Source: Mobula birostris
Taxonomy: Eukaryota
Assembly: GCF_030028105.1 (NCBI RefSeq)
Contig: NC_092379.1
Coordinates: forward strand, 52,623,821-52,687,820
Direction of reading: 5' to 3'
DNA length: 64,000 nt
A program made the translations under genes and the position numbers. A model generated the notes under the pieces. That model was not told where the DNA came from. It saw nothing but the letters and a program-made list of their open reading frames with translations, and ran no database searches. Positions 975 to 59,605 of this stretch are shown here, piece by piece (the first letter of the stretch is position 1; each line of letters opens with the position of its first letter).

Positions 975-2990
975 AGGATATCTCCAGGCTGGTTCACCAC
1001 TGCACTGAACACGTGTCCCAGATCTCCTTGCTACAATTTGTGTACTAACTATTTACATCAAGGGTTCCCAACCTGTTTTGCCATGGACTCCTACCATTAA
1101 CTGAGGGGTCCATGAACCTCAGGGTGGGAACCCCTGATTTGATGCTGTCTAGTATCTCCAAAGACTGAAGAAATTCAAATGCTGCTGAACTAACGTTCAC
1201 AACAGAACTGCTGTGTTCTCGTGTCTGATATTGCCTTACTCAAATCAGTTGTCTTTTCTACCCCGACTAAAATGTCGATGGGTGAAGGACAGCACTTCAG
1301 ATGAGAGTTTTAGCCTCTGGTGGGCCCTGACATCACACTGTTACAGTGAGTCTCCACACAAAATATCAAATTCTCATCTTCTCTCTCGTCATAGTTTAGG
1401 CATCTGGGCTCAGCATCAAAATCCCTGCCTCCCTACCGGTCTGTAACATAGTGGGTCAAGCAGTTGTCATTTGGCTCAGCGTATCTCTGTTCATTTCTAG
1501 AGCTAAACAGTTCTGGGCTTTCTCACTGCCCTACCAGGAGCACATAGTATTTATGTGGCTGCTCTTGGAGCCTTTCTGATCACTATGACCCCGAGGTGAT
1601 TGACAATGGTGAACTCAGTCATGGTAACGCCAAGCGAAGGTGATCAGACTTTCTCATTGGAGATTATTAAGCTGAGCAACTCTGTGGTCTGAATGCTACA
1701 GGTCACTTGTTACCCAAGACAGATGTATCCGTTATTATTGTACACTCAGACAGAATAGAGGGAACAATGGCCCCGCTTGGTAGTTGAGTCCAGAACCAGA
1801 TAACGTTCAACAAAGATGATCTGCTAAAGAACTAAAAGTGACAAAATAAATGTATTTTTCCCATACAGCTCTAATTGACATTTTAATTCGCTGCAGGTCA
1901 GACCCGGTTCTTTCTTTTAGTCCCCAGTCTCAACTATTCCCGTTATCTACTGAGATATGGACATCAGCAGGGTCTGGATATCAGACCTGATCTCAGTGTT
2001 CCACTTTGATTGGTAGAAACTTGCTTATCTACTTGTCTGAAAGTTACACAATAAATTCATCATGTGAGATAAACTTGGATCTTGATATCTGGTCCGAGAC
2101 CAAAATCCTTAGATTTTGATAGCAAGGTATCAGCTGGAGACCCACTGCAGCCATTCCTTCCGCTTGCCATTCCACTCATGCCCTGCAGACTGGCGTGCAA
2201 AGCTGTGGTCAAGTCTGCTCCTGTACCCACATTCCAACACGAACCAAGAACTAGGCTGTTCATGACAGTCCCAGCGATACACATGCGCCCCAAAAACTGC
2301 GCGGGCACTGTTACTCAGCAGCAGAAAATTCCCCAGGGCTTTCTGCAAATTGTGGGGCAGCACAATTTGGTAAATGGGTGTTCGGAGCTTGGAGTAATTC
2401 TCCCTCATTCCAGATGACCCACCCCTACCTGCTGCCAATCGTCCGGAGATCTTTGCCCACTGAATGCATTGGCACCTTTCGGTACAACTTTGGACTCCTG
2501 GCACCTGCAAATTCCATTCACTGTGACAGCCAATTCTGATGCTCGGGGGTTTCTGGGTAAGAACAGTCCCATTGAAAGTGTTTACATGCACACCACCTCC
2601 TACCAAATGCCAGTCAATATTTTTATAAGAACCCAGCGTGCAGTTTAACACAGCAAGCGCCCACATGCAACATACTCAATATCAACAGTCAATGAAACTT
2701 TTTTCCTCTCAATCAGCCTCCAAATGTCGAAACTCTGTCATTCGTTGCCACAACCAGCCCCACCCCCTCCCCACTCTGATTCCCTGTTCCTCATCTTATG
2801 CTCTTACCCCTACCACTGTGCACTGCCCCAAACCCTGCCCTGTGCTGACCTGGCTGCATTAAACATCCAGCTAATGGTTCCCCATTGTGCGTCAGACTTC
2901 AGAGGACTGTGGCAAATCGTAACAACCAGCTGTGGGAGACGCCGGCCTGTGGAAGCAGTGAAAATGACCCGTATTGTTTAAAAAAGCCGG
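975..2990 (-). pseudogene. ZNF cassette U0 remnant: exon-2 leader, intron 1 and decayed promoter; finger array not in the window
   Basis: 975-1380 aligns by eye to the leader/acceptor region of U6 (55790-56130). The fossil LINE block is at 1585-1730, the donor GCAG|GTAGG is at 2428/2429, and the NRF1 site has decayed to atgcattggc (2464-2473). Confidence 0.75.
1059..1136. mobile_element. Short hAT/Charlie-like MITE
   Basis: Imperfect TIRs caagggttcccaacc ... gggtgggaacccctg; the 8-bp flanks match only partly (atttacat/atttgatg). Confidence 0.6.
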
Positions 2991-3143
2991 GAATATGGGG
3001 GTTAATAACCAATGTCGTTCTCCCTCAGCCCAGATATTTGAGGGACGAAGAACATGTCAGACGTAACTGCAGAGAGCTCATCTTCATCAGTCTGCAGAAA
3101 ACTCAAGGGACACCTCTTCACTCACAAACTGGTGACTATCTCA

Positions 3144-3396
3144 TAGTCATAGTCATAGCAGGGGAAATTGGTTTTGATTACAGTTGCACCATAAATAATT
3201 AAATAGTAATAAAACCATAACTAATTAAATAGAAATATGTAAATTATGCCAGGAAATAAGCCCAGGACCAGCCTGTTGGCTCAGGGTGTCTGACTCTCCA
3301 AGGGAGGAGTTGTAAAGTTTGATGGCCACAGGCAGGAATGACTTCCTATGACGCTCTGTGTTGCATCTCGGTGGAACGAGTCTCTGGCTGAATGTG
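3144..3396 (-). mobile_element. 5'-truncated Rex1-type 3' end
   Basis: 19-bp TSD caaactggtgactatctca (3125-3143, 3397-3415), a (tagtca)n tail, and a body similar to 60895-61140. Confidence 0.85.
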
Positions 3397-3567
3397 CAAA
3401 CTGGTGACTATCTCACCAGAGGGAAAGGGACAGGAGAACATCAGGAATGGATTAGAAGGACAGTCGTGGAACAGAAACAAGGGCAGAGCCCAGATGCGTG
3501 AGTTCACTCTCTACTGTGTACCGGGTGTGGTGGAGATTCGCTGAGACAGAGTTTCAAATAGAACTGA

Positions 3568-3573
3568 TTTATT
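3568..3573 (-). terminator. Poly(A) signal of U1 within the conserved 3' module
   Basis: AATAAA on the minus strand about 100 nt past the stop. The same context recurs at 16081, 18222, 21711, 54392 (ATTAAA) and 59303. Confidence 0.7.
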
Positions 3574-3676
3574 TGTCAAAATCACAATGTTAAACTCCAG
3601 TAACAGTGAACAATAGCTGAAGAAACTCCTCTCTTGCCCAGCGACCAGATCTGGGTGGGATGGGAAGCAGCAATCA

Positions 3677-5137
3677 TTACAGTCTGACACAGTCACTTTT
3701 GATCGCCTCTGAATTCAGCAGCCATGATGGTTCATTATCCAGCATCCTGCTCACCGAAACACTTTCTCCAGGTTGAACTCGCCAGTGCTTCACAAGGTGG
3801 GAGAGCTGAGTGCATTCCTTCCCACATTCAGTGCAGATGAATGGGCTCTCCCCAGTGTGAACTTGCTGGTGTGTCTGCAGCTGAGATGAGTGAGTAAATC
3901 CCTTCCCACAGTCTGAGCAGGTGAACGGCATTGCCCAGGTGTGAACTAACTGGTGTGCCATTAGGTCAGTTGACCGAGTGAATCCCTTCCCACAGACTGA
4001 GCAGGTGAACGGCCTCTCCCCAGTGTGAACTGACTGGTGTGCCTGTAGGTGGGACGACCGAGTGAATCCCTTCCCACATTCAGAGCAAATGAATGGCCTT
4101 TCCCCAGTGTGAACTGACTGGTGTGTCTGTAGGTGAGACGACCGAGTGAATTGTTTCCCACACTCTGAGCAGGTGAACGGCCTCTCCCCAGTGTGAACTC
4201 TCTGATGTACCTTCAGTTGAGATGACTGAGTAAATCCCTTCCCACAGTCTGAGCAGGTGAATGGCCTCTCCCCAGTGTGAACTGACTGGTGTGTCTGCAG
4301 GTGGGATGACTGAGTGAAACCCTTCCCACATTCAGTGCAGATGTACGGCCTCTCCCCAGTGTGAACTCGCTGGTGTGTCAACAGATCTGATGACCGAGTA
4401 AATCTCTTCCCACAAACGGAACAGATAAATGGTCTCTCCCCAGTGTGAACTCGCTGGTGTCTCTGCAGGTGAGATGGGTGGGTAAATGCCTTCCCACACT
4501 CTAAGCAGGTGAACGGCCTCTCCCCAGTGTGAACTCGCTGATGTATCTTCAGTTGAGATGACTGAGTGAATCCCTTCCCACAGTCTGAGCAGGTGAATGG
4601 TCTCTCCCCAGTGTGAACTCGCTGGTGTGTCAGCAGATCAGATGACCGAGTGAATCCCTTCCCACAATCAGAGCAGACGTATGGCCTCTCACCAGTGTGA
4701 AATCGCACGTGTGTCAGCAGATCAGATGACCGAGTGAAGCTCTTCCCACAGACAGAACAGATAAATGGCCTCTCCCCAGTGTGAACTCGCAGGTGTGCCT
4801 GTAGGTGAGATGGGTGGGTAAATGCCTTCCCACAGTCTGAGCAGGAGAACGGTCTCTCTCCAGTGTGAACTCGCTGATGTCTCTGTAGGTGAGCTGCCTG
4901 AGTGAATCCCTTCCCACACTCAGAGCAGGTGAATGGTCTCTCCCCAGTGTGAACTAACTTGTGTGTCTGAAGGTAAGATGACCGGGTGAATCCCTTCCCA
5001 CATTCAGAGCAAATGTACGGTCTCTCCCCAGTGTGAACTCGCTGGTGTCTCTGCAGTTCAGAAAAACGAATATATGCTCTCCCACAGTCTGAGCAGGTGA
5101 ATGGCCTCTCCTCAGAGTGAACTCGCTGGTGTCTCAT
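3677..5137 (-). CDS. Tandem C2H2 zinc-finger protein U1 (486 aa; 15 intact fingers and 1 degenerate; no N-terminal effector domain)
   Basis: Uninterrupted CxxC-x12-HxxxH repeats with TGERP linkers. The acceptor (5601), donor (7724) and CpG promoter are intact. Confidence 0.93.
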
Positions 5138-5600
5138 TGCCCAGGATGAATTCGTAAATCCCTCCCACTCTCAGAGCAGGTGAATTGCCTCTCCACAATC
5201 TAAACTCACTGGTGTGTTGGTGAGTGGGCTGAGTGAGTGAATCCTTTCCCTCAGAGAGCTGACGAATGATATCTGCCTGCTGTCAGTTCTCTGGGGTGTT
5301 CACCAAGTCAGATGACAGACGTAGTGAATTCCTCGCATGATCAATGCAGATGAAGAACTGATCTCTGGTGAGCAAATGCCGGGTGATCTCAGCACCCCGG
5401 TTCCAGTGGCTTTCACTGAATTAAAATGGAAAACTTCACATTAAGATAAATCACTTTTTCATCTCCGAGGATCGACAATGAAAGTTTTGGTGTTGCAAAG
5501 AAAATGTCTGCTCACTCCTTAAATGTCTGGTCAAGCACAGCAGAACTGACGTGTTGTTGTGTTTGAGATTCCGGCACACAAATCCTTTGCTGTTTCCAAC

Positions 5601-5632
5601 CTGTAAAAAGATTTACAAAAGACATCAGTGGG
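5601..5632 (-). promoter_or_regulatory. 3' splice acceptor and branch point of U1 intron 1
   Basis: The minus strand reads cactgatgtcttttgtaaatctttttacAG|gttgg. Homologous acceptors lie at 19803, 40372 and 55999. Confidence 0.8.
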
Positions 5633-5689
5633 TGAAGGACAGCTTTTGAGATGAGGTAATTTCACTGTCCCTCTTAGCCTTTGAGGAAT

Positions 5690-5897
5690 TGCTTTGACCA
5701 CTTAATTGCTTTTTAGGAGCCATTTTTACACAGAAACAAAGGGTGCACACAACACAAGGAGCGAACGAGCGAGACGCGAGGTGAACAACGAGTGCTGGGG
5801 AGAGACTTCTAGCATTTTTTTTTTCAAATGCAGCATTTTCGATCTGCGGTTGGTCAAATCTGTGGATTCGGAATCTGCGGATACGGAGGGCCGACTG
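5690..5897. mobile_element. Tigger-like (Tc1/mariner) DNA transposon end
   Basis: Terminal gatacggagggccgactg followed by TA, resembling Tigger TIRs. The left boundary is approximate. Confidence 0.55.
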
Positions 5898-6109
5898 TAC
5901 TCTGATCTCTCACCATTCTGGTGACTGACGGTGAAGAACTCATCGGTGTCAAAGCCAATGAATGTGAAGGGGAGGGTATTGGTCTTTCTCACTGGAGATG
6001 GTAAACACTTTTGTGATGTGAAAGCTGCAGGTCACTGGTTACCCAGGATAAAGGTGTTTGATGTCACTATGCAGCCAGAGAGGGGAATGGTGAAAAGGAA
6101 GTTTTCATG

Positions 6110-7190
6110 GGGACTGGCATGGACGGAAGACTGGCTGATTGGCAGGAGGTAAAGATTGGGAATAAAGAGAGCCATTTCTGGTTGGCTGTCAGTGACTGGT
6201 GGTGATCTGCTGGGGTCAGTCTTAATGCTGCTTCTTTTCACGTTATATGTCAATGATTTGGATGAAGGAATTGATGGCTTTTTCTGCCATGTTTGCAGCC
6301 AACACAAAGGTAGGTGGAGGGGGTCGGTAGGGTTCAGATAGCAAGGAGTCTGCAGAAAGACTTTGGCAGATGGGCAAGGAAGTGGCAGATGGAATATATT
6401 GTCGGGAAATGTAATGTTCGGCACCTTGTAGAAGGAATAAAGGGGTGGACCATTTTCTAAAACTGGGAGAACATTTAAAAAAAATCAGAGTTACAAGAGG
6501 ACTTGAGAATCCTCGTGCAGGATTCCCAAAAGGTTAATTTGCAGGTTGAACCAGTGGAGAGGAAGACAAATGTAAAAACTAGCACCCATTTTTGGAGTAC
6601 TGGAATATAAATCAAAAATATAAAGTTTAGTGCCTTTATAAAGCATTGGTCAGAGCACCCGGAGTATTGTGAGTAGCTTTGGGTCCCTTGTCCAGGAAAA
6701 GATGTGCTGGCCTTGGAGAGTGCCAGAGGAGGTTCACGAGAATCATTCCAGGAATGAAAGAGTTAATATATGAGGATCATTTCATCACTCTGGGCCTGTA
6801 CACGCTGGCGTTCAGAAGAATGAGGGGGATCTCACTGAAACCTATCGACTATTAAACAATATTAAATATCTAGATAGCGTGGATGTGGAGAGTATGTTAT
6901 CTATATGGAGGTAGTCTGGCACCAGAGGGTACAGACTCAAAATAGAGGGGCGTCCGTTTAGAACAGAGCTGAGTTTCTTTAGCCAGCGAGTAGTGAATGT
7001 GTGGAATCCATTGCCACAGATGGCTGTGGAGGCCAAATCACTGGGTACATTTAAAACAGAGGCTGATATGTTCTTGGTTAGTCAGGGCATCAAAGTTTAC
7101 AGGGAGAAGGCAGGGGAATGGGATTGAGGGCGATAATCAATTAGCCATGATGGAATTTCCGAGCCGAGTGGCCTATGTCTAATGGTGTTG
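6110..7190 (+). mobile_element. CR1 LINE 3' fragment, decayed
   Basis: RT motifs GSVL..LLF.LYVNDLDEGI and the CR1 3' region (ggttcacgagaat..ccaggaatgaaag; tgtggaggccaa). Confidence 0.85.
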
Positions 7191-7399
7191 TGTTCTTAAG
7201 GGTAAAAAGACCCAGAACAACAGGCGGAAGAACAAAGGTGATTTTCTAAAGAACTAAAACTGGCGTAACGATTCTCTCTTTTTGCTCTGTCACAGTAACT
7301 CACATTTTCAGTGACTAAAACGGACTTCAGCTGCGATTAACCCGGAACTCTATTTTTGTTCCGAGTTGGATTTATCTCGCCAGAGCTCGGCAGAGTCCG

Positions 7400-7900
7400 T
7401 TCCCATCCCCTCCGCCAGCGCTTCCTGAGACTGGCGGGGAAAGCGCTGGAAGTGTCACGCGTGTCCGCGACACGTCAACAACGAGATGCCGGTCTGTCAC
7501 GGTCCCAGCAGCGCGCATGCGTCGCTGAAATGGCGCCAGCACCTTCGCTCATCAGGCCAAAATTCCCCGGGGCCCGGGTGCGGCGCATGGGGGTGAGGAA
7601 GGGGAAACAACCGGGACTACCCGAGGTGCGGAGCCGCGGTATGTCCACAGCTCGCAGCAATTGTCCCTCAATCGGGGTTGCGGGCCCCCTGATATAAGAC
7701 ACCCACCCAGAGACCAGCTCCTACCTGCCACCGATCAGTCAGACCCTTGTGTCCACGCGACGCATGCGCGATTTCCCGGAAAACCGGAAATCTTCACGCC
7801 TGCGCATTTGATCGGTGGGTTACCATAGGCGAATTCTGACGCGCGGAGATCTCTGGGTAGACAAGGCACCATTCAAAGACGAGGAAAGCGCCGATTTCCC
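7400..7900 (-). promoter_or_regulatory. CpG-island promoter and exon 1 of U1
   Basis: CpG-rich. NRF1-type sites at 7760-7769 and 7797-7806, paired ETS-like ccggaa at about 7777-7790, donor GCAG|GTAGG at 7724/7725, and a second NRF1+YY1 (aaatggcg) pair at 7511-7536. Confidence 0.8.
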
Positions 7901-15839: not shown

Positions 15840-17900
15840 TCACTTCACCCAGAGCGGTGACCGTTCGGAACCCGTCACTACAGGGACAGACTGAGGGGAG
15901 TGGCAGCGATGGATTGAAGGGGAAGCTGATTGAACAGAGAGAGAGAAAAGAACATCAGTACAGCGTGGTGGGACTGACACCAGCAGGGACCAGAGGGGCA
16001 GAATGGTCTCTCTAATTTAATAGTAAGTATGTTACAGAGTCAGTAAGGATCAGAAACACAATATTTAAAATAAAAATTGATTTATTTACGACAGATCCAC
16101 AATATTTAACTCCAGTCCGATTAAAGGCCAACATCATCAGAACAAACTTCTCCCGTGCCCTGTGATCTGGAGGCGGTGAAGCTCGGCGTTCTCGCTGGGT
16201 TGGGGGCCGGTCTCGCCCGTCTGCGCTGCCCCCTATTGTCCGAAATGTGGAATGACAGCCTGGATCGTGGGCGTGCATTTGTTCCTCTGCAGACAATTGA
16301 GAACAGCTTGCTCTTGCCGACAACATCCACGGATCATAAACTTATAGCACATGTCACTCGGGGACTTCAGCTAAGTATATATCTTTTGTGCGAATATATG
16401 TTTACTTGCTATCTTATATGCGCCTTGTGCTGTTTCTGTTGTTACTGTGTTTTGCACCTTGGCCCCAGAGTAACATTGTTTCATTTGGCTGTATTTGTTG
16501 ATGGTTGAATGATAATTGAACTTGTATAGCTGAACAGTTCTGGACATGTCCCACTGCCCTAGCGGGAGCACACAGTATTTACACGACTGCTCCTGGAGAT
16601 TATCTGCTCACGGTGACCCTGAGGTGATTGACAGTGGTGAACTCAGTATTGGCAATGCCGATGAATGTCGAGGGTAGATGATTAGACTTTCCCGTTGGAG
16701 ATTGTTAATGTGTGGAATTGTTGTGGTCTGAATACTACAGGTCACTTTCTCCCCAAGACAGAGCAGTTTGTTATCTCTGTGCACCCAGACAGAATAGAGG
16801 AAACAATGGCCTCGCTTGGCAGAAGGGTCCAGAACCGGATGGTGCTCAACAAAGGTGATCTGCTGAAGAACCAAGTGTCGCAACGGGTTTGTTTATCCCG
16901 TTCAACTCTAATTGACATTTAAATTCACTGGAAGCTGGATCTAGTCCTTTCTTTTAGTCCTCAGACTCAACCATTCCCATTATCTATCTCGATATGGACA
17001 TCAGCTGATTCGGGACATCGGACCTGATCTCAAAGTTCCCCTCCAGTTGGCAGAAAATCGCTCATCTACTTGTCTGAAAGGTGCAATGCATGAAACTTGC
17101 AGCTATATTTTTGGCCAAGTCCCAGATCGTTAGATTTAGATACCAACATCTGAGCTGAGCCTGCAAGATCCACTGCACCCATTCCCTTTGCCTGCCCTTC
17201 CAAACACACCCTGTGGTCTGTACCCTCAACCCCTCACCAGAGCAAATGGTCTCCCCATCACACACACCCCAGAGGTTGCCCCAGGGCCCCGAACAAATCG
17301 TGGGGCAGCAGGATGGCGACTGTGTCGGGCGCAGAGCCATGGTGTTTCTGGAGCATGTGGCAATTGCCCCTCAGTCAGGGTGCAGGCCCACCTGCTGATG
17401 AAACCCCACCCCTGCCTACTGTCGACCCTCCAGAGCCTCTCGTCCTCTGAGTGCACGCACACTTTTCAGCTCAACCTCGTACTCTCGACACCGGCACACT
17501 CGATCCAGGCGTCACCGAAGGTAAATTCTGAAACGCGGAGACGCCTGGGTAGGAACACCACTGAAAGCGTTTACAAGCACTGGTTCCCCTCTGGCACCCT
17601 AATGGCCCCAATCCAGTCCATATTTTATGGGAACTCAGCAATTAAACACAGCAAGCTTCCTCGACAAATATACTCAACATCAACAGGCGTGGTGTGTGTA
17701 ACTGGCAAAGATAATGTAATTTTTTTTCTCTGTCAGTCAGACTCCAAAGAGCCCGAAACCCTTCAGTGCTGACCCATCTCTGGTTTCTGACCCTCCACTG
17801 AACATCCAAATAATGGTCCCCCACTCTGCTGGCAAGTTTAGAGGACTGCAGAGTGTTCGAGTGACCCAGTTGTGTGAGATGCAGCCTTTAAGCAGTGAAA
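15840..17900 (-). pseudogene. ZNF cassette U2: empty shell with 3' module, intron block and decayed promoter but no finger exon
   Basis: Poly(A) module at 16081 and fossil LINE at 16610-16775. The donor is mutated (17412-17415) and NRF1 has decayed to gtgcacgcac (17451-17460). No C2H2 repeats lie in between. Confidence 0.8.
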
Positions 17901-18399
17901 ATGACCCATGGTGTTGGGAAGAGCAGGGAATGTTAGCAACCGATGTCATTCTTCCTCAGCACAGAGGCACAAAGAACATGACAGACGTAACCACAGTGAG
18001 CTCATCTTCAGTCTGCAGGGAATTTAAGGGAAGCCTCTTCACCCACGGAGTGGTGACCATTTAGAACCCATCACCACAGGGAGAGTGAGAGGTGAACAAC
18101 AGGGATGGATATAAAACAGAAACATTGGCAGGGACCAGTTGGGCTAATCTGACCCCCTACTCCACACTGGGTATGTTGTAGATTCACTAAACACCTGAGA
18201 CAAAGTTTAAAATAGAACTCATTTATTTGTAACAGACCTAGAATATTAAACTGCAGTCTCATAAAAGCTGAATGTCAGAGGAAGAGACTCCTCCCAGGCC
18301 CAGTGACCAGGGTGCAGACTGGCTGTGGTGAGCAGCAGCAATAATTGCAGTTCCACACCAACAGTCACTTCTCAAACTTGCCTCCAGCAGGCAGTTTAT

Positions 18400-19560
18400 T
18401 TACACTTTTTCCCCAGCGTGAACTCGCCGGTGTTTCACAAGGTGGGACGCTTGAGGGAAACCCTTCCCACATTCAGAGCAGGTGAACAGCCTCTCCCCGG
18501 TGTGAATTCGCTGGTGGATCAGCAGATCAGATGACCGGAGGAATTCCTTCCCACACACGGAGCAGATAAACAGTCTCTCCCCACTGTGAACTCGCTGGTG
18601 TGTCTTCAGGTGAGACGACTGGGTAAAAGCCTTCCCACTGTCTGAGCAGGTGAACAGCTTCTCCCTGGAGTGAACTCGCTGGTGTCTCGTCACGTGGGAT
18701 GAGTGAGTGAATCCCTTCCCACACACAGAGCACGTGAACGGTCTCTCTCCCGTGTGAACTCGCTGGTGTACCTGCAGGTGAGATGATTCAGGAAATGCCT
18801 TCCCACAGACTGAGCACCTGAACAGACTCTCCCCAGAATGAAGTCGCTGGTGTTTGATCAGGTAGGACGACCGAGCGAATCGCTGGCCACATTCAGGGCA
18901 AATGAATGGCCTCTCCCCAGTGTGAACTTGCTGGTGTGTCTGCAAGTTGGATGACTGAGTAAACATCTTCCCACACTTTGAGCAGGTGAACGGCCTCTCC
19001 CCAGTGTGAACTCGCTGATGCATCACAAGACGGCATGAGTGAGTGAATCCCTTCCCGCACATGGAACAGGTGAAAGGTTTCTCTCCCTTGTGAACTCACT
19101 GGTGTAACTTCAGCTGAGAGGAAAGAGTGAATCCATTCCCACAGTCTGAGCAGGAGAACGGCTTCTCACCAGAGTGAACTCGCTGGTGTGCCAGTAGGTT
19201 TGATGACCGAGTGAATCCCTTCCCACAGTCCGAGCAGGTGAACGGTCTCTCCCCGGTGTGAACTGACTGGTGTGTCTTTAGGTGGGATGACTGAGTGAAT
19301 CCCTTCCCACAGTGTGAGCAGGTGAATGGTTTCTCCCCAGTGTGAACTCGCCTGTGTGTCAGCAAGTCAAATGACCGAATGAATCTCTTCCCACACATGG
19401 AGCACATAAACGGCCTCTCGCCAGTGTGAACTCGCTCGTGTGTCAGCAGATCAGCTGACCGAATGAATCTCTTCCCACACACGGAGCAGATAAACGGTCT
19501 CTCCCCAGCGTGAACTTGCTGGTGTGTCATCATGTGGGATGAATTAGTGAATCGCTTCAC
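18400..19560 (-). pseudogene. C2H2 ZNF U3 (13 fingers) split by one in-frame TGA at 19096-19098
   Basis: ORFs 19096..19560 and 18400..19062 are in frame, separated by [14 protein letters not shown]. The acceptor (19803), donor (21285) and promoter are intact. Confidence 0.85.
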
Positions 19561-20409
19561 AACAGTTCAATGGTCTCTCACTCTTGTGAACTCACTGCGT
19601 GTCTGCGAGTGGGCTGACTGTGTAAATCTCGTCCCACGCAGTCGATGATGAGATACATCTTCATCTCGAAGGATCTACAAATGATATATTGGCGTCACGA
19701 AGGAAATATCCGGTTACTCCTTAAATGTCCGGTCAGACACAGCAGAACTGATGAGCTGTTGTGTTTGAGATTCCTGTACACAAATCCTTTGCTGTTTCCA
19801 ACCTGTAAAAAGATTTACAAAAGACTTCATTGGGTGAAGGAGAGCATTTTAGATGAGATAATTTTAGTGTCTGTGGTGAGATCTGACATCACACTGTCAG
19901 CGTGAGGTTCAACACCAGTTGGACGAAAATCTCATCTTCTAACTGGGTTTGGATCAGGTGGCCAGACTGATCATTGAATTCTTAGACGGTTTTTCTGTCT
20001 ATATCAGGACTGGCCATCTCTGACCGTCTGATATCAGCTCTCTCTCCTTCAGTACTAATACAAGGTCTACTCATGTCGCACAGCATGACCAAGGTCACAT
20101 GATATTACATTCCTGGTCGTGGAGACGTCCTAATTACTCCGACCCCTCCCCACCAGGTGATTGACGGTGGAGAAACTCATCAATAGTAACACCAATTAAT
20201 ATGGGGGGGGGGGTAAACTTTCTTATTGGAGACTGCTGATGTGTAGCATTTTGTGATGGGAAAGTTACAGGTCATTTGTTACCCGGCACAAAGGTATTTG
20301 ATGTCACGATGCACCCAGAGAGAATGGGGCAAAACATGTTCGCAGGGATAGGTAGGTCCAGAACAAGAGGAGGCTGGGCAAATGTTATTTTCTAAAAAAG
20401 CCAGAGCAG

Positions 20410-20920: not shown

Positions 20921-21049
20921 TCCACTTTGTCTGAGAACCGCCTTCGAAGTTCTTCACCCGTGATCAACTCCGAACTTATTTTTGCCCCGAGTTCCAGCTC
21001 CTTGGATTTAGATAGCTAGTGTCTGGGAGATCCAGAAACCCGTTCTTCT

Positions 21050-34825: not shown

Positions 34826-34844
34826 CACCCAGATGTAGAAATAA

Positions 34845-35720: not shown

Positions 35721-35724
35721 GTTA

Positions 35725-38378: not shown

Positions 38379-38561
38379 GAATATTAAACTTCAGTCTCAT
38401 TAAAGACTCGCAATAGCAGAACAACCCCCTCCCGGGGTGATCGGGGCTCAGTCCTTGGTGAAACTGTGGAATCGGACAACAAGAGGAATACACGGACTTG
38501 TAACCAGATCCAGCAACTGCGATGGTTATAAATACAGCACAGAGAAACTTTTTCAACTTTT

Positions 38562-40040: not shown

Positions 40041-40914
40041 TGAGAAGTTAAAACAGACAACTTCATTTTAGACACAAAGCAGACGCACGTTTCCAACTGG
40101 GATGAGATATGCCTTCTTTTCCGAGGATCAACAATGAATATGTTGTTAATTTACAAGGATTGACTCCAGATTGGTTCATCCAGATCTCACCGTAGGCCAA
40201 ACAAGTGTTCAGATTCCCCTTGCTGTGACTGGTGTGCTGTCTTCTCAAACATCTCCTCCTTCGCATTCAAAAACTGATTTCATTCAAGTGCTGGTGATCC
40301 AACTTGCACAGCAGAACTGGCATATTGTTGTGTCTGGGATAACCGCACACAAATCCTTTCTCTTTGGTTTCCTGTAAAAAGAAGTTTACAAAAGACATCA
40401 ATGGGTGTAGGTTAGCATTTGAAATGAGATAATGGTACTCTCTATAGTCAGCTGATTGTTAGAGTGAGGCTCAACACAAGGTGCACAGAAAATTCATCAT
40501 CTTCTAACTGGGCACGTGTCAAACATCCAATTCTCTGACTATCTTTGGGGTTTTCTAAATATGTGGCAATTTTTTGATGCAAATACTTCCGGTCACTTTT
40601 TCCACAGGACAGATGTGTTCAAAGTCCTTAAGTATTCAGACAGAATAGAAAAGTGGCAGAATATCCAAAAGCAGTGATAAAAGTGTTTTTTTTTCTCCCT
40701 CTCTGCACAGCACTAACCAACTTTTTATTTCAAATCAGACCTAGTACCTTCTTTTAGACAACACTCTCAACTATTTACTAAATCTCTGGACATCAGCCGG
40801 TTGAAGACATGGGCCCTGATGTCAATGTTCCATTGTGTTCCATTTGTCAGGATATCGCTTACTACACTGGTTTGAAAGGTTCATTCGAGGCTCTTAATGT
40901 GAGATTAACGTAGA

Positions 40915-41222
40915 CATCTACAAGGAAAGGTGGCACCTGTTATTAAGGACCCCCATCACCCAGGATATGCCCTCTCCTCATTGTTGCCATCAGGAAGGAG
41001 GTACAAATGTCTGAAGACACACACTCAGCGATTCAGGAACAGCTTCTTCCCTTTTGCCATTCGATTTTGAAATGGACATTGAGCCCATGAACACTACCCC
41101 ACTGTTTTATTATTGGTTTTTGCACTACGCTTTTTAAAAGTTAACTATTTACTATACACATATATACTTACTGTAATTTACTTTTTCAAAGTTTTCTATA
41201 TTATCATATATTTCATTGCACT
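40915..41222 (+). mobile_element. Rex1-type 3' fragment; its tail resumes at about 43990-44046 after the CR1 insertion
   Basis: IKDPHHPGYALSSLLPSGRRY...RFRNSFFP; tail aacaaatttcacgac..gccggtgatattaaac. Confidence 0.8.
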
Positions 41223-41223
41223 A

Positions 41224-43989
41224 TAACCAGATAACAATTACAGCACGGAAACAGGCCATCTCGGCCCTTCTAGTCCGTGCCGAACTCTTACTCTCACCTA
41301 GTCCCACCGACCCGCCTCAGCCCAAAACCCTCCATTCCTTTCCTGTCCATATACCTATCCAATTTAACTTTAAATGACAACATCGAACCTGCCTCAACCA
41401 CTTCTGCTGGAAGCTCGTTCCACACAGCTACCACTCTCTGAGTAAAGAAGTTCCCCCTCATGTTACCCCTAAACTTTAGCCCTTTAACTCTCAACTCATG
41501 TCCTCTTGTTTGAATCTCCCCCACTCTCAATGGAAAAAGCCTATCCATGTCAACTCTATCAATCCCCCTCATAATTTTAAATACCTCTATCAAGTCCCCC
41601 CTCAATTTTCTAAGCTCCAAAGAATAAAGACCCAACTTGTTCAACCTTTCTCTGTAACTTAGGAGATGAAACCCAGGTAACATTCTAGTAAATCTTCTCT
41701 GTACTCTCTCTATTTTGTTGACATCTTTCCTATAATTTGGTGACCAGAACAGTACACAATACTCCAAATTTGGCCTTACCAATGCCTTGTACAATTTCAA
41801 CATTACATCCCAACTCCTATACTCAATGCTCTGATTTATAAAGGCCAGCACACCAAAAGCTTTCTTCACCACCCTATCCACATGAGATTCCATCTTCAGG
41901 GAACTATGCACCATTATTCCTAGATCCCTCTGTTCTACAGCATTCTTCAATGCCCTACCATTTACCATGTATGCACCTCACATTTATCAGCATTAAACTC
42001 CATCTGCCATCTTTCAGCCCACTCTTCTAACTGGCCCAAATCTCTCTGCAAGCTTTGAAGACCTACTTCATTATCCACAACTCCACCTATCTTAGTATCA
42101 TCTGCAAACTTACTAATCCAATTTACCAATCCATCATCCAGATCATTAATATATATGACAAACAATATTGGACCCAGTACAGATCCCTGAGGCACACTAC
42201 TAGTCACCGGCCTCCAATGTGACAAACAGTTATCCACCACTACTCTCTGGCATATCCCATCCAGCCACTGCTGAATCCATTTTATTACTTCAATATTAAT
42301 ACTTAACGATTGAACCTTCCTAACTAACCTTCCATGTGGAATCTTGTCAAAGGTCTTCCTAAAGTCCATATAGACAATATCCACTGCTTTACCCTCGTCA
42401 ACTTTCCTAGTAACCTCTTCAAAAAATTCATTAAGATTTGTCAAACATGAACTTCCACGCACAAATCCATGTTGACTGTTCCTAATCAGACCCTGTCTAT
42501 CCAGATAATTATATATACCATCTCTAAGAATACTTTCCATCAATTTACCCACCACTGACGTCAAACTCACAGGCCGATAATTGCTAGGTTCACTCTTAGA
42601 ACCCTTTTTTAAATAATGGAACAACATGAGCGATACGTCAATCCTCCGGCACCATCCCCGTTTCTAAAGACATTTGAAATATTTCTGTCAGAGCCCCTGC
42701 TATTTCTACACTAACTTCCCTCAAGGTCCTATGGAATATCCTGTCAGGACCCAGAGACTTATCTACTTTTATATTCCTTAAAAGCCCCTGTACTTCCTCT
42801 TCTTTAATCGTCATACTTTCCATAACTACCCTACTTGTTTCCCTTACCTTACACAATTCAATATCCTTCTCCTCAGTGAATACCGAAGAAAAGAAATTGT
42901 TCAAAATCTCCCCCATCTCTTTTGGCTCCGCACATAGCCGTCCACTCTGAATCTCTAAGGGACCAATTTTATCCCTCACTATCCTTTTGCTATTAATATA
43001 ACTGTAGAAACCCTTGGGATTTATTTTCACTTTACTTGCAAAGTAACCTCATATCTTCTTTTAGCTTTTCTAATTTCTTTCTTAAGATTCTTTTTACATT
43101 CTTTATATTCCTCGAGCACCTCACTTACTCCAAGCTGCCCATATTTATTGTAGATCTCTCTCTTTTTCTGAACCAAGTTTCCAATATCCCTTGAAAACCA
43201 TGGCTCTCTCAAACTTTTAACCTTTCCTTTCAACCTAACAGGAACATAAAGATTCTGTACCCTCAAAATTTCACCTTTAAATGACCTCCATTTCTCTATT
43301 ACATTCTTCCCATAAAACAAATTGTCCCAATCCACTCCTTCTAAATCCTTTCACATCTCCTCAAAGTTAGCCTTTCTCCAATCAAAAACCTCAACCCTGG
43401 GTCCAGTCCTATCCTTCTTCATAATTATATTGAAACTAATGGCATTAAACACATAACTCTGTCACCTGACCTATCTCATTCCCTAACAGGAGATCCAACA
43501 CTGCCCCTTCTCTAGTTGGTACCTCTATGTATTGCTGCAAAAAACTATCTTGCACATATTTTATGAACTCCAAACCATCCAGCCCCTTTACAGAATGGGT
43601 TTCCCAGTCTATGTGTGGAAAATTAAAATCTCCCACAATCACAACCTTGTGCTTACTACAAATATCTGCTATCTCCTTACAAATTTGCTCCTCCAATTCT
43701 TGTTCCCCATTAGGTGGTCTATAATACACCCCTATGCGTTACTACACCTTTCCCATTCCTCAATTCCACCCAAACAGCCTCCCTAGACGAGCCTTCTAAT
43801 CTATCCTGCCAAAGCACTGCTGTAATATTTTCTCTGACAAGCAATGCAACACCTCCCCCTCTTGCCCCTCCGATTCTATCACACCTGAAGGAACGAAATC
43901 CAGGAATACTTAGTTGCCAATCACACCCCTCCTGCAACCATGTTTCACTAATAGTTACATCATCATATTTCCAGGTATCAATCCATGCT
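41224..43989 (-). mobile_element. Relatively young CR1 LINE, nearly full ORF2, broken by several stops and frameshifts
   Basis: Consecutive ORFs carry ISETWL, YYRPPN, VGDFNFP, NYRPVSLTS, PQGSVLGP, KFADDTK and FFTQRVV. Confidence 0.95.
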
Positions 43990-44119
43990 GCCGCTAAGTT
44001 AACAAATTTCACGACCTGTGCCGGTGATATTAAACGCGATTCTGATGAACTCGGATGTATATGATTGAGCCCCAAATGCGTGGATTTAGATAGCTGAAGC
44101 TCAGCAATATGTAAAATGT

Positions 44120-44640
44120 CCTCCCGCTCCCATTCCGCCCACCTGCGCACCCAAACATGACCTGCGATCGGGGCAGAGTCTTGCATGGCGGCTCCTTTAC
44201 CCAGGACAGCCCAGAGCCCAGAAACCGCTCCGCCCGTCACCGTCCCGGCGATACGCATGCGTTAAAGAGATGGCGCCAGCACCTTCGCCCATCAGCAGAA
44301 ACCACCCCCACCCCCCTCCGCCTCTCCCGGTGCCCCATTTCGTACTGTGAGGGGAAAATAACCGGGACTGTCCCAGTGTGAGGAGCCGCGGTGGGTCCGG
44401 AGTTCACAGCGATTGTCCCGGGGTGGGGCTGAGGGTTACGCGGGCCCCGCTGCTGATGAAAACCCGCTCGGAGCCCATTCCTACCTGCTGCCAATCCTTG
44501 GAAGCCTATTGTCCACTGGGCGCATGCGCGCTTCTGAGACTCCGACCTGTGGCTCTTTGCACCTGCGCACTAGAATCACAGCCGGCGCTTTCTGCAGCGC
44601 GGAGATTTCTGGGTAAGGCTGGTGCCATTGGAAACATCTA
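44120..44640 (-). promoter_or_regulatory. CpG promoter and exon 1 of U5
   Basis: GCGCATGCGC at 44520-44529, donor at 44484/44485, and an intronic NRF1+YY1 pair acgcatgcgt..agatggcgcc at about 44253-44277. Confidence 0.8.
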
Positions 44641-53985: not shown

Positions 53986-54878
53986 AACAACTCAGTAGTG
54001 TGAGACACAGGGAAGCAGTGAAAATTACCCATAACGTTGGAAAGAGCAGGGAATACAGAGATTAACAGCCAGTGACACTCTTCCTCGGCTCAGAGGTTTG
54101 AGGGACAAGGAATAGCTGTGACATAACTCCAGTGAGCTCATTGTCTGTTTCAGTCTGCAGAAAGTCATGCAGCAAATTCAAGGGAAAACTCTTCACCCAC
54201 AGTGGTGACCAGCTGGAGCCTGTCACCACAGGGAGGAGCATGAGTTGAACCTGAGGGATGGGTTTACTAGGATTGGTGTGGAATAGAAACACTGGCAGGG
54301 ACCAGCTGGGCTGACTGGCCTCAGCACTATACATTGTGTTGCATAGACAGTGAGAACCTGTGACACAGGATTTTAAATACTGTAAAAATGTTTTAATGGT
54401 CAGAGATCAGCAACATTAAAGTCCAGTCTAGACAAAGACTAACGACAGTGGAAGGAACCCCAACAATGCCCAGAGACTAGGGTTCAGTCCTGAGTGTGAT
54501 AAGCAGCTACAATAACTGCAGAATCTGGCACAACAATCGGTCATGAACTTACAGCTGGACTCAGCAGCTGTGATGATGAAACATACAGCATGCAGCTTAT
54601 TTTTTTCTGCAGTGTGAATTCATTGATTAAATTTCTTTGCACACACAGGACAGGAGTATACAGTCTGCTTAGTGTGAACACCCTGGTGTCTCATCAGTTG
54701 GGATGAGATCGTGAATCCTCTCCCAAACACAGAGCAGGTAAATGGACTCTCCCAAGTGTGAATTTGCTGATATGTGAATTCTCTGGTGCATCAGCAGGTC
54801 GGTTGACTGAATGAATCCCTTCCCACACAGCAGGTGAATGGTCTTTAGACACTGTGAGCTCGCTGGTGCCTCAGAAGC

Positions 54879-55631
54879 TCACAGGACTGAAAGAATCCCT
54901 TCTCCCTCACATGGATCAGGTGAAAGGTTCTTCTTCATGTGAACTCCCTGGTGCCTCATCAGATGGGATGGATGAGTGAATCCCTTCCCACACTCGGAGC
55001 AGATGAACAGCCTCTCTCCAGTGTGAACTTGCTGGTGCCTCATCAGCTGGAAAGACTGAGTAAATTCCTTCCCACACTCGGAACAAGTGTATGTCCTCTC
55101 CAGGGTGTGAGCTTGCTGGTGTACTTGCAGGTCGGATGACTCAGTGAATCCCTTCCCACGCTGAAAGCAGGTGAAAGGCGTCTCCCTGGTGTGCACCCGC
55201 TGGTGTGCCTGCAAGTGGGACGACTGAATGAATCGCTTCCGACACACAGAGCAGGTAAAAGGTCTCTCCCCTGTGTGAACCCGCTGGTGTCTCAGTAGCA
55301 GAGAAGATGTAATGAATCCCTTCCCACATGTGGAGCAGGTGAATGGCCTCTCCCCGGTGTGAACCCGGTGGTGTATTCGAAGGTCAGAAGAATCAATGAA
55401 TCCCTTCCCGCACTGGGAGCAGGTGAATGGCCTCTCCGTGGTGTGAACTAGCTGGTGCCTTATGAGTTTCGATGACTGAGTGAATCCCTTTCCACACTCC
55501 GAGCAGGTGAATGATTTCTCCCTGCTTTGAAGCCTCTGGCATCTCATCAGATCAGATGACATAGTAGATCCCTCCCAAGCTTCAAGCAGTTGAGCGTCTG
55601 ATGTATGGTGAGGACGTGCTGGAGTGTTCAC
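54879..55631 (-). CDS. C2H2 zinc-finger protein U6 (6 intact fingers and 1 degenerate, then a frameshift; likely ATG at 55562)
   Basis: Finger array with further decayed fingers at 54600-54900. Acceptor at 55999, donor at 58142, NRF1 site retained. Confidence 0.75.
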   Translation of the reverse strand: MNTPARPHHTSDAQLLEAWEGSTMSSDLMRCQRLQSREKSFTCSECGKGFTQSSKLIRHQLVHTTERPFTCSQCGKGFIDSSDLRIHHRVHTGERPFTCSTCGKGFITSSLLLRHQRVHTGERPFTCSVCRKRFIQSSHLQAHQRVHTRETPFTCFQRGKGFTESSDLQVHQQAHTLERTYTCSECGKEFTQSFQLMRHQQVHTGERLFICSECGKGFTHPSHLMRHQGVHMKKNLSPDPCEGEGILSVL

Positions 55632-56269
55632 AAGGCCAATGGTTTCAATGAGATGTTGAAACAGAAAACTTCATTTTAGACAGAAAACAGATGCACATTT
55701 CCAGCTGGGAAGAGATGCATCTTTTCCAAGGACCGACAACTGATGGATTGATATCTGCTCACTCCTTCAATAAATTGAAGACAATTTACAAGATTTATCT
55801 CCAGAATGTTCATCCAAATCTCACCCCTATACTAAACATGCATTCCGGTTCTTGCTGTGACTGCTGTGTTCTCTTCTCAAGCACCTCATCCTCCTCCACA
55901 TTCAGAGATCAGAGGCATTCAAGTGCTGAGGAATTCATAGACACAGAACTGTGATGTGTTTGAGATTGCCGTACACAAATCCTTTTGCCTTTTCTACCCT
56001 GTAATAAGTTTATAAAAGACAGCAATGTGTGAAGGACAGCATGTCAGATGAAATCATTTCAGTCTTTAGAGTGAGCTCTGATCACACTATTACAGAGAAG
56101 TTCAACCCAAGTAAGAAGAACGTCATCTCATCTTTAACTGTGCATGGCTCAGGAATCCAGACTCGGCATTAACTCCTCTGTTTTTGTGTCGGTATCAGAA
56201 TGGGTGATTTCTGCCCAGTATTCTGACTGTGGCTTGGCTCAGTTTGCCTCTCTCCATTAGGAGGGAAGA

Positions 56270-56785
56270 TAGAACAGTATAGTACAGTATGGGCCCTTTG
56301 GCCCACAATGTTGTGCCGACTGCTAAACCTTCTCCAAGATTAATCTAACCCTTCCATTCCCCATAGCCCTCTATTTTCCTTTCACTTGTATGCCGAGCTA
56401 AGTTTATTAAATGTCTGTAATGTATCTGCTTCTACCCCCTCCCTGCCACCGCATTTATGTACTCATCACTCTGAGTAAATAAAACCTACTTCTGAAGCCC
56501 TCCCCCATACTTTATTCCAATCACCTTAAAATTATACCCTCTCGTATTAGCCATTGCCACCCGAGGGGAAAATGATTGTCCACTCTATCTAAGCTGCTTC
56601 TCATTTTACAGACCTCTGTCAAGCCATGCCTCATCCTCCTTTGCGCCAAGGAGAAAAGTTCCAACTCACTCAAACTTTTCTCATAAGACACAGTGTCTAA
56701 TCTAAACAGCATCCCGGTGAATTTTCTCTACACTTTCTCTGAAGCTTCCACGTTCATTACAGAATGAAGCGACCAAAACTGAATG
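56270..56785 (-). mobile_element. CR1 3' fragment
   Basis: SYEKSLSELELFSLAQRRMRHGLTEVCK followed by the tail gggccaaagggcccatactgtact. Confidence 0.8.
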
Positions 56786-56989
56786 TGCAGTAGATTTGTG
56801 GTGTGCTTGGTGTCACTTGTTATCCAGGACAGAGGTGTTTGATATCATTATTTATTCAGGAAGAATAGCAGAAAAAATGGCCTCAGTGCCAGAGGATCCA
56901 GAACCAGACGACACTGAACGAAGGCTATTTACTGAAGAACCAAATGTGAGTCAACGATTTTGTTCGGCGAGGGGGAAAGGACCCTGAAG

Positions 56990-58065
56990 GGTGTTATACA
57001 CAGGCCTCTGACCAGTAGCCAGGATGTGGGGTACAAATTACAATCAGAGATAGCAAAGGCATGTAAAAAGGGACAAGGTTAGGGGGATCTTGATGTCTGG
57101 GCAGCCCAGGATCTCCATATTTATCGCCCAGGTCTGCGCCACGGACGGGCGCATCCACTGTCTACCTGGACAGATGGAGCCATGATGATGATGGTCATGG
57201 GGGATTTCAATATGCAGATAGATTGGGAAAATCAGGTTGGTGCTGGATCCCCAGAAAAAGAATTTGTTGAATGTCCATGAGATGGCCTTTTGGAGCTGCT
57301 TGTGGTTGAGCCCACGAGGGTAAACAGAATTCTGGTTTGTATTTTGTGTAATGCAGGGGTCCCCAACCTTTACGCACCATGGACCGGTTTACTATTGACA
57401 ATATCCTTGTGGACCGGCCAACCGGGGGGCGGGGTGTTCAAGTTTAACAGTGTGTGACAGGGAATGAGGAAAGGTGCAGCTGACTCGTACTGTTTCATAT
57501 CGCCAAATCATATTGTTTCCTCTCGGCCCAGTAGCACATCTTTGCAGCCCGGTGGTTCGGGACCACTTGTGTAATGAACCAGATTTGATTACGGAGCTTA
57601 AGGTAAAGGAATCTTCAGGAGGCAGTGATCATAATATGATAGAATTCACCCTGCAGTTTCGGGGGAGAAGCTAAAGTCAGATGTATCCATATTACAGTGG
57701 AGTAAAGGGAAATACAAAGGCATCAGAGAGAAGTTGGCCAAAACTGATTGGAAGGAGACATTAGCAGCAATGACGGCAGAGCAGCAATGACTGAAGTTTC
57801 TGGGAACAATTTGGAAGCTGCAGGAAAGATGAAGGGAGGATGAAGCAAGCATGGCTGACAAGGGAAGTCAAAGCAAACATAAAAGCAAAGAGAGAGCATA
57901 TAATAGACCAAAACTTAGTGGGAATTTAAAGGAATGAGAAGCTTCTTAAAAACCAACAGAAGACAAATAAAATGGTAATAAGGAGAAAAAAGTTGAAACA
58001 TGAAGGCAAGCTAGCTAATTAATATTAAAGAGGATACCAAGAATTATTTCAGATATACAGAGAGC
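56990..58065 (+). mobile_element. CR1 APE-region fragment with nested inserts
   Basis: VMGDFN and GSDHNMIEF motifs. It hosts an (atg)n-tailed insert at about 57080-57192 and a hAT MITE. Confidence 0.8.
57354..57568. mobile_element. hAT/Charlie-like MITE, 215 bp
   Basis: Perfect 8-bp TSD gtgtaatg (57346-57353, 57569-57576); TIRs caggggtccccaacc / ggttcgggaccactt. Confidence 0.9.
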
Positions 58066-58069
58066 AATT

Positions 58070-58400
58070 TGCAGCAATTGTCCCTCAAATGAGGCGAGCA
58101 CCCCGACCATAATTGAACCCTCGCCCGGAACCCCGCTCCTACCTGCCGCTGACCTTCCCACAGCGTTTCATCCACTCAGCGCATGCGTGTTCTCCTGCGC
58201 AACCTACGGCTCTCGGCGCCTGCGCATTTGGATCGCGTAGCAAAGTTCAAAGTTTATTATCAAAGTACATATAATGTCACCATATACAGCCCTGAGATTC
58301 GTTTCGTATCACAGATGGCGGAAGCGCTGAAATGTTTGGGTGACCATAGTGCCATTGAAAGCGTCTGCAAGGACTGGCAGCGCTCTGCCAAAAGGTTCCA
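58070..58400 (-). promoter_or_regulatory. Promoter and exon 1 of U6, with a short retroposon tail inserted at about 58242-58305
   Basis: Donor at 58142/58143; gcgcatgcgt at 58179-58188; gcgcctgcgca at 58216-58226. Confidence 0.75.
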
Positions 58401-59039
58401 ATCCAGTCATTCGTTGCCACATCCTTCTTGTCCCGATTCCCTCCACCTCAGTGTTTCTGACCCTGCTCCATTGCACTTCAATCTGAGGGCTCCCCGCTCT
58501 CGTCTCCGACTTTAAAGACAGTGTTGTATAGTAATGACCCAGCTGTGTGAGAGGCAGCCCTTTGGAAGCAGTAAAAATGACCCAAGAAGTTGAATAAGGA
58601 ATTAAGCAACCCAAGATGTTCTTTCAAGTCGTTTATTGTGATTTAACTATACCATGTCTACAATGTATATAATCATATAATGTATATAGAAATGAGACAA
58701 CGTTTCTCCAAATCAGGCTGTAAAGCACAGCAGTACGTATAACACATGCAACATACAATAATTTATGAAGTTAAGGATAAAATCTACAGAAGAATTATGC
58801 ATGAATAATGAACTAAAGTGCATAAATTAAATACTGTAAGCTACGGAACAGATTAACCAGTGACACTTCAAATATGATGCGGCAGGGAGTCCAGAAGACT
58901 AATGGCATGAGGGAAGAAACTGTCTCCCATCCTGACCGTTCTCAATTTTATGCATCATCAGTGTCTCCTGCCTGATAGTAGAAAGTCAAAGAGGGTGCTG
59001 GATGGATGGGTGGGATCTTAGGGCCAAAGGTTTCTACGT

Positions 59040-59605
59040 CCTAAGGTTCGAGGGACGGGAAACATCTGTGACATAATTCAAGTGACCTCATCACCTCCTT
59101 CAGCAAGTCAGGGTAAACTTCAAATTGAGGTGCCCATTTGGAACCTATCACCATAGGGAGGAAAATGGGGTGAACAACAAGGATGGATTTAATAGAAACC
59201 GATGTTGTATTGTGTGACCAGCTGGGCTGAATGGCTTCTGTACTGTAGAATGTGTTGCATAGACAGTAAAAACCCATGACACAGAATTTAAAATAGAAAT
59301 GTTTTATTTGTCACAGATCTACAGTATTATAGTGCACTCTGGTTATAGACTAACAACAGTGGAACGAACCTCAACAATGTCCAGGGACCAGGACTCAGTT
59401 CTGAATGTGATGAGCAGCAGCAATAACAACAGAGTCTGATGCCAACAGTGCCTCATGAACTTGCAACTCAACTTGTGACGCTTAAATATCCAGCATGCAG
59501 CATTTGAACTGTGAACTCTGGTGTTTCACTAGATTGGGTGACGAAGTAAATCTCTGCACTCACGGGGCAGGTATGTGGTGTCTCCTTAGTGTTCACACTG
59601 GTGTT
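59040..59605 (-). pseudogene. 3' end of cassette U7 (poly(A) module and last decayed fingers), cut by LINEs
   Basis: Closely colinear with 54080-54690; AATAAA at 59303-59308; finger remnants at 59510-59605. Confidence 0.75.

Follow-up and report, generated by a model that had tools for sequence, protein, structure and literature searches.

Organization of the zinc-finger cluster

The 64,000-nucleotide stretch of the Mobula birostris genome (4.0 Gb) analyzed here, C12:52,623,821-52,687,820 (hereafter the window), harbors a tandem cluster of repeated C2H2 zinc-finger (ZNF) gene units, which belong to a genome-wide family of two-exon genes whose products are predicted to consist of fingers alone. 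There are eight units on the minus strand, from 1159 to about 59620, arbitrarily labeled U0, U1, Ua, U2, U3, U5, U6 and U7, and they have homologous non-coding modules in common. A self-comparison with the fingers masked shows the same module order from unit to unit: promoter, second GC block, two intron blocks, acceptor, untranslated region (UTR) block, poly(A) module and spacer. Leave-one-out hidden Markov models (HMMs) recovered 49/49 module copies, 48 of them at E-values of 3e-8 to 8e-54 and one at 0.0026; when run on 380 kb of control DNA, the HMMs for the promoter, acceptor and poly(A) modules matched nothing, and one for an intron block matched once. The tandem cluster of repeated units is hence real.

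In a six-frame scan, arrays were found on the minus strand with 15 fingers at 3857-5095, 12 matches (one with a stop) at 18418-19488, another 15 fingers at 38649-39887 and 6 at 54939-55505; a decayed array (21940-22745) and, on the plus strand, a lone finger (31334) came from tblastn. Intact 15-finger frames are present only in U1 (486 aa) and U5 (460 aa), the other six units being broken: the array is not recognizable in Ua and U7, and that of U0 is decayed and lies just left of the window. A first-pass annotation of this DNA had described a cluster of finger genes made of at least eight same-strand copies of one two-exon cassette with the full set of shared modules. The eight tandem units, their homologous modules and the two-exon layout stand; however, most of the arrays are truncated or remnants, U3 lacks the promoter, Ua has neither acceptor nor array, U7 retains just its 3' end, a repeat cuts into the poly(A) module of U5 before the AATAAA, a promoter remnant and a lone finger lie on the opposite strand, and a second, distal donor is used. 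The features of the window are as follows.

1159..2560, minus: U0 remnant, retaining the promoter, the intron blocks and an acceptor in decay; the array, also decayed, and the poly(A) module are found just left of the window, past a long interspersed nuclear element (LINE)-like repeat at 1-866
2845..3140, minus: conserved inter-unit spacer, with homologs at 8473-8567, 17787-18040, 53984-54190, 58457-58600 and 59039-59118
3410..3700, minus: U1 3' module, with AATAAA at about 3573
3677..5137, minus: U1 intact open reading frame (ORF), 486 aa, 15 C2H2 fingers; the Met is helix +5 of a decayed finger; four-finger (336-bp) higher-order repeat
5138..5600, minus: U1 non-coding start of exon 2, made partly of decayed fingers; acceptor AG at 5602-5601
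5601..7724, minus: U1 intron, containing the shared blocks as well as inserted repeats (6113-7157); candidate distal donor 7304/7303, the use of which is seen in the paralog L032
7725..7850, minus: U1 CpG-rich promoter and short exon 1, with proximal donor 7725/7724 and two palindromes that we take to be NRF1-like
15840..17540, minus: Ua remnant; a promoter whose donor is broken, and intron blocks adjoining a 3' module, without acceptor or array
18040..21420, minus: U2, complete module set; 13 finger units at 18400-19533, exon 2 start 19802, proximal donor 21286/21285, distal donor 20843/20842
21520..24100, minus: U3 pseudogene, which has a decayed array (21940-22745) and a degenerate acceptor and lacks the promoter module
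31312..31435, plus: lone degenerate finger, on the strand opposite to the units
34010..34114, plus: promoter remnant (HMM E-value 9e-14), on the strand opposite to the units
37749..38461, minus: U5 3' module, broken by a repeat (37868-38379) just ahead of the expected AATAAA
38562..39944, minus: U5 intact ORF, 460 aa, 15 fingers; candidate start Met at 39944 or 39929; three-finger (252-bp) higher-order repeat
39945..44610, minus: U5 5' part; exon 2 start 40371, 4113-nt intron holding a LINE with a reverse transcriptase (RT; RVT_1 at 41965-42663), donor 44485/44484, promoter
54190..58240, minus: U6, complete module set; ORF 54879-55562 (227 aa; six intact fingers and one degenerate), followed by frameshifted finger remnants; exon 2 start 55998, donor 58143/58142
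59039..59620, minus: U7 remnant, 3' module only

When compared with its intact 13-finger paralog L046, U2 shows an in-frame TGA at 19096-19098, after finger 5, and one finger with a C-to-S change. The second conserved GC block lies about 200 nt downstream of the proximal donor (7470-7560, 21020-21100, 44220-44310, 24030-24100 and 2246-2322); it has motifs that we take to be YY1-like and NRF1-like and is possibly a second or antisense promoter. A 53-bp minisatellite of 25.5 copies with 95% matches occupies 47400-48757. Further units, in both orientations, extend up to 100 kb into either flank, and at about -62,000 to -49,000 from the window start (L004-L006) there is a recent inverted duplication with identical acceptor modules at about -60,700 (plus) and -50,700 (minus).

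A genome-wide family

The cassette is not peculiar to this cluster: it defines a family of two-exon zinc-finger genes that duplicates in tandem and is found genome-wide. A five-finger query found at least 244 matches (150 of 15,377 candidates scored), while all 40 scored matches to the acceptor module (1,670 candidates; 82-100% identity on 14 contigs) and all 40 scored matches to the promoter module (110 candidates) held up. Across the 264-kb cluster and 74 further regions we collected 79 ORFs with at least five fingers, 77 of which have an acceptor module within 1.6 kb upstream, a proportion that is partly true by construction because 20 of the regions were picked by acceptor similarity. The closest named proteins are from rays (Hypanus and Pristis). 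A full-length homolog search mostly returned tetrapod ZNFs and was uninformative on the N-termini of ray proteins, and an exact database look-up of five predicted proteins gave no match.

Several paralogs are noted here in their own right. At about 0.4-89 Mb of C17 (L036, L038, L040, L109-L148 and others) there are dozens of near-identical ZNF copies, comprising several young families in both orientations. L066 (C12:10.13 Mb) has 44 fingers in a single open frame, and one paralog on C24 has had its poly(A) module amplified into a tandem repeat of about 47 bp (L039:6484-7670).

Two-exon transcripts

Contigs from probable RNA runs (X1, X2, X3, X5 and X19) match members of the family. Those from X1 and X2 have no differences from U1 at 5368-5572; another contig has 10 differences from U1, as many as the paralog L033, and its eight listed differences are those of L033. 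In X5 and X19 there are contigs ending at the U1 acceptor. U2 is matched by pieces of 466 and 523 nt with 2-4 differences, spanning about 20,770-21,298. In addition, an X5 contig leaves out 1,040 nt bounded by GT..AG, thereby joining the distal donor at 20843 to exon 2, a joint that is weak by itself because it comes from one contig with a short side of 25 letters. Loose contig ends at the acceptor (X2, X3) map just before the GT donors of two paralogs: one is the proximal donor of a C6 gene, a single genomic match 4.3 kb above its acceptor, and the other is the distal donor of L032, the homolog of U1 7304. Joints that skip introns suggest that these contigs are RNA. The predicted exon 1 of U1 is uncovered in X1, X2 and X19 and barely covered in X5, in contigs that can show presence and not absence. 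Overall, the two-exon model holds, with alternative non-coding first exons: a proximal and a distal donor share one acceptor.

Probable start codons inside the array and the search for an effector domain

In 74 of the 77 arrays the finger frame is closed between the acceptor and the array, opening 82-1,063 nt past the acceptor. A Met is found from 28 aa before finger 1 to the start of finger 2 in 75/77 arrays, a count that leaves out two ORFs that are second halves behind a stop, as against about 17% expected from internal fingers. This Met occurs at two preferred positions: helix +5 of a decayed finger (35/69 versus 45/1,091 internal fingers) and the linker Arg (20/77 versus 33/1,091), although the non-independence of the paralogs means that P values for the placement are overstated. 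The two distinct positions suggest that the start codon arose more than once. An HMM trained on the UTR block matches finger arrays, which indicates that the 5' UTR is in part made of dead fingers.

There is no third-position excess in exon 1 (22 unique sequences) or in the first 66 nt of exon 2 (68 sequences), as opposed to the finger control (0.13/0.13/0.24). The upstream ORFs (uORFs) of the first exons are 2-65 aa long or absent, and neither a conserved ORF nor codon periodicity was found in 22-24 first exons. A conserved uORF micropeptide, which we considered as a candidate, was rejected given the lack of conservation and codon periodicity and the frameshifting gaps. These results, together with the contigs that join non-coding first exons, support the finger-only reading of the first-pass annotation.

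An effector-domain search was run on 131 open frames (at least 26 aa) from the 5' regions of U1, U2, U5 and U6, excluding the CR1 insert in the U5 intron: none reached the Pfam cut-off, the only matches being two unrelated sub-threshold ones, and KRAB, SCAN, BTB and ZAD were absent, as had been proposed for the N-termini. PR/SET was likewise absent from the scanned 5' frames and ORFs. The U1 and U5 proteins had solely finger-type families among the matches listed, each with 15 PF00096 stretches in one exon and TGE(K/R)P linkers. Pfam would be blind to a diverged KRAB-like or an uncatalogued domain; however, the frame and periodicity tests are independent of it. Genome-wide, there were nine KRAB matches among 58 candidates, all at C9:132.4-132.8 Mb. 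The SCAN search, with 150 of 3590 candidates scored, found none in C12:52.2-53.4 Mb and only dispersed matches elsewhere; the thousands of dispersed SCAN-like candidates are presumably retrotransposon capsids. The genome-wide domain searches covered KRAB and SCAN. From the closed frames, the placement of the Met and the empty domain search, a finger-only, effector-less architecture appears highly likely.

The KRAB matches deserve a separate remark: at C9:132,414,000-132,826,000 (L021-L030) KRAB exons recur in tandem at intervals of about 43 kb, nine or more in all. In the single unit that was inspected there are PR/SET exons, and its short finger exon runs into a stop after the first finger. 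Because of this neighborhood of PR/SET exons and fingers, the locus looks like a PRDM9-like gene array in turnover. Separately, one sawfish gene model, P0051, has a long N-terminus resembling promoter read-through, and hence annotation may hide the architecture.

Selection and turnover of the arrays

As the first-pass annotation had noticed, the recognition-helix residues differ between fingers: the four most variable finger columns include positions -1, +3 and +6 (2.4-3.0 bits, with +5 at 2.5), versus 0-0.6 bits at the ligands and most linker columns. Among young duplicates, for which we used 637 collinear finger pairs from 60 arrays of nine families after dropping pairs more than 12% different, the zinc ligands together with F and L show 0 non-synonymous versus 25 synonymous changes. 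The zinc ligands are therefore under strict purifying selection.

Parsimony counting over a tree built from 1,195 unique fingers puts the ratio of non-synonymous to synonymous rates (dN/dS) on internal branches at 1.59/1.56/1.52 for -1/+3/+6. Six neutral simulations through the same pipeline gave internal values of 0.58-0.89 (-1), 0.72-1.23 (+3) and 0.90-1.26 (+6), so that the observed values lie above all six, and the helix dS equals the global dS (34.7 versus 35.4). This suggests an older, episodic diversification at the contact residues, by a counting method with six simulation replicates and no recombination model. Two other comparisons were set aside since their fingers are often non-orthologous: framework-matched finger pairs (1.2-1.9 at -1/+3/+6) and flank-matched gene pairs (1.4-2.1), in which one of the 16 pairs was moreover a self-pair.

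The arrays diverge faster than their flanks (synonymous difference, pS, about 0.15 versus 0.067), and in paralogs with 7% flank divergence the fingers are often non-collinear. Block periods are visible within arrays, four fingers in U1 and three in U5, and fingers of one array differ at a median of 17-20 of 84 nt.

A possible function and its alternatives

We give a probability of about one half to the following reading: the finger-only family is predicted to bind DNA and would mark repeats specific to the lineage, transposons for instance, either by occupying them or via a partner that the fingers bind. In the mechanism we propose, a CpG promoter and a non-coding first exon stand ahead of a single acceptor, and units are copied, inverted, broken by repeats and lost, both of which can be read off the units themselves; in the contigs of the probable RNA runs, proximal and distal first exons are joined to that acceptor. 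Translation would begin at a Met that arose inside the array, at helix +5 or the linker Arg, and the fingers upstream of the new Met would then have decayed into 5' UTR. New specificities may come mainly from duplication, deletion and swapping of whole fingers, together with substitutions at -1, +3 and +6.

A transposon-directed function, taken jointly with this architecture, is plausible by analogy. Wells et al. (2023, PMC10547256) report that the correlation between transposable elements (TEs) and ZNFs across species does not depend on accessory domains; the FiNZ-ZNFs repress TEs, as shown by knock-down (PMC10547256); fingers that mediate protein contacts have precedent (PMC5705219); and ZNF512 proteins are cited as starters of heterochromatin at repeats (PMC13458389).

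Several observations weigh against this reading. The description of the cluster as TE-embedded is correct in that repeats, among them RT-bearing LINE fragments, lie in and around the units, but they are no richer there than on the rest of the chromosome: the repeat-shared fraction is 0.32 in 20 cluster segments and 0.31 in six window segments versus 0.32 in 20 same-contig controls (P=0.73), by a repeat library built from a random 180 kb, which compares and does not measure repeat content. As the repeat fraction equals the chromosome background, embedding is no evidence of a TE link and was dropped as support for it. The proposed test of dN/dS at the helix positions gave a divided answer, with the excess of about 1.5 confined to old, internal branches: on terminal branches of the same tree the values are 1.11/0.97/0.98 at -1/+3/+6, and in young collinear duplicates the ratio of non-synonymous to synonymous differences (pN/pS) is 0.51-0.57 at contact sites, 0.62-0.71 (bootstrap 0.42-1.00) at -1/+3/+6 and 0.43-0.47 in the U1 family, values that are biased down because pairs more than 12% different were filtered out. 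Ten of 24 single-base contact changes are CpG transitions, including eight Arg/Gln changes at -1. The helices draw on a narrow repertoire, and Ser predominates at position +2. As regards sampling, 20 of the 74 distant regions were selected by acceptor similarity and the paralogs are not independent; the runs were only guessed to be RNA and provide contigs, not reads, with the U2 joint resting on one of them; and three of the 77 arrays, related C17 copies, have a frame open back to the acceptor.

The same data bear on an account that keeps the finger-only architecture and dispenses with a transposon-directed role, namely drift by duplication and unequal crossing-over, with near-neutral contact residues and with intact copies acting as ordinary regulators, as satellite or RNA binders or as competitors of other factors. 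We regard it as a serious contender, though one to be doubted. It accommodates a contact-site dN/dS that is 1.1-1.25 overall, close to 1 on terminal branches and lower than 1 in young duplicates, the many R/Q changes at -1 that CpG mutability explains, the lack of TE enrichment in the cluster and the breakage of six of the eight window units. It does not readily accommodate an internal-branch excess beyond six of six neutral simulations with helix dS at the global value, or the cross-species TE-ZNF correlation (Wells et al., PMC10547256).

That an effector is hidden seems improbable: it would have to be encoded by an uncatalogued upstream coding exon, be connected to the fingers by a second intron with which the closed stretch of exon 2 is spliced out, or be supplied in trans as a conserved uORF peptide. 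There is precedent in FiNZ, which was overlooked in zebrafish. An ATG is present in the last 50 nt of 19/24 first exons with a donor, but it belongs to the promoter palindrome and is absent in a paralog with a contig-seen junction, while the uORFs are unconserved, with frameshifting gaps and no codon periodicity. The three open C17 arrays (L096, L099 and L105), a subfamily in which splicing to a coding exon could create a coding N-terminus, nevertheless have a Met in finger 1. Two Hypanus models carry the acceptor-to-finger stretch in frame, yet their N-termini are unrelated and they were the only two candidates found. Finally, an AG near 5415 is a possible second acceptor in U1, but the U1 frame is closed downstream of it and contigs continue through this region in U1 and its paralog. 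Least probable in our estimate is a cassette with dispensable proteins that segmental duplication has spread mainly as selfish or passenger DNA. Many near-identical C17 copies in both orientations and many remnants would fit this; against it stand the strictly conserved zinc ligands and long open frames, and the units are not retrocopies, since they retain the intron and promoter. No transposase or terminal repeats were noticed in the units, in which no search was aimed at them.

If bare arrays do mark repeats as we propose, they might silence or insulate transposons by occupancy or through a finger-bound cofactor, a state preceding the recruitment of KRAB or FiNZ. It is a tentative and rather unlikely extension that cartilaginous fishes run genome surveillance by hundreds to thousands of such arrays without a dedicated repressor domain; were it true, new sequence readers would be cheap, as any array can acquire a start codon and its fingers can be shuffled or lost to the UTR. 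To our knowledge, every well-studied vertebrate ZNF expansion tied to transposon control has a repressor module. A large, spliced family under purifying selection in a third jawed-vertebrate lineage, apparently without such a module, would separate DNA recognition from repression and makes it testable whether ZNF expansions came before effector domains and how fingers act alone. For family-wide knock-down and re-annotation, the short first exon and the acceptor, being shared, offer a handle, and even if there is no repeat binding, the family tests whether such expansions can be near-neutral.

Comparison with known zinc-finger systems

The ray genes have at least five C2H2 fingers with TGE(K/R)P linkers in one exon, ligands under purifying selection and variable -1/+3/+6 positions. 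By these sequence features they belong to the general class of lineage-specific tandem C2H2 expansions, and they would fall outside the KRAB-, FiNZ-, SCAN-, BTB- and ZAD-ZNFs and PRDM9. Chondrichthyan members of this class resemble them in having hundreds of clustered multi-finger ORFs with variable contact residues: supplement file 2 of Wells et al. 2023 lists 1223 ORFs for Amblyraja, 3586 for Scyliorhinus canicula and 315 for Pristis (PMC10547256). The chondrichthyan data in the accessible part of that work are ORF counts, to which gene structure, a probable finger-only start and selection are added here.

The FiNZ-ZNFs of cyprinids likewise have two exons with the array in exon 2, tandem clusters and signs of positive selection in part of the data, which for the ray arrays means the internal branches; however, their exon 1 encodes a conserved acidic 28-aa domain, whereas exon 1 here has no coding signature (no FiNZ profile was run), and their TE repression was shown by knock-down, whereas that of the ray family is hypothetical (PMC10547256). 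The KRAB-ZNFs of sarcopterygians share birth-and-death clusters, single-exon arrays and TGERP-type linkers (PMC11603059 in part), but they possess a KRAB exon, which was not found for the ray arrays, the KRAB matches of the ray genome being in the PRDM9-like array; the TRIM28 route, too, is reported as sarcopterygian. KRAB-bearing PRDM9 does occur in cartilaginous fish (PMC5519329; PMC11603059), from which the whale shark paper reports KRAB-box families to be missing (PMC8455134). The PRDM9 array also turns over by whole-finger shuffling (PMC5705219), but PRDM9 has KRAB, SSXRD and PR/SET, which the ray arrays lack, and, unlike the PRDM9 array, theirs are not a homogenized minisatellite, given how widely the fingers of one array differ.

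Our literature search, with subscription papers, preprint supplements and three Wells et al. supplement files outside its scope, found no description of a finger-only chondrichthyan ZNF family or of array-internal start codons; in two elasmobranch genome preprints the word 'zinc' is absent from the main text, their supplements being outside this scope. What is already known is the tandem C2H2 expansion in cartilaginous fish, and what appears to be new is a probable finger-only architecture with a start codon inside the array.

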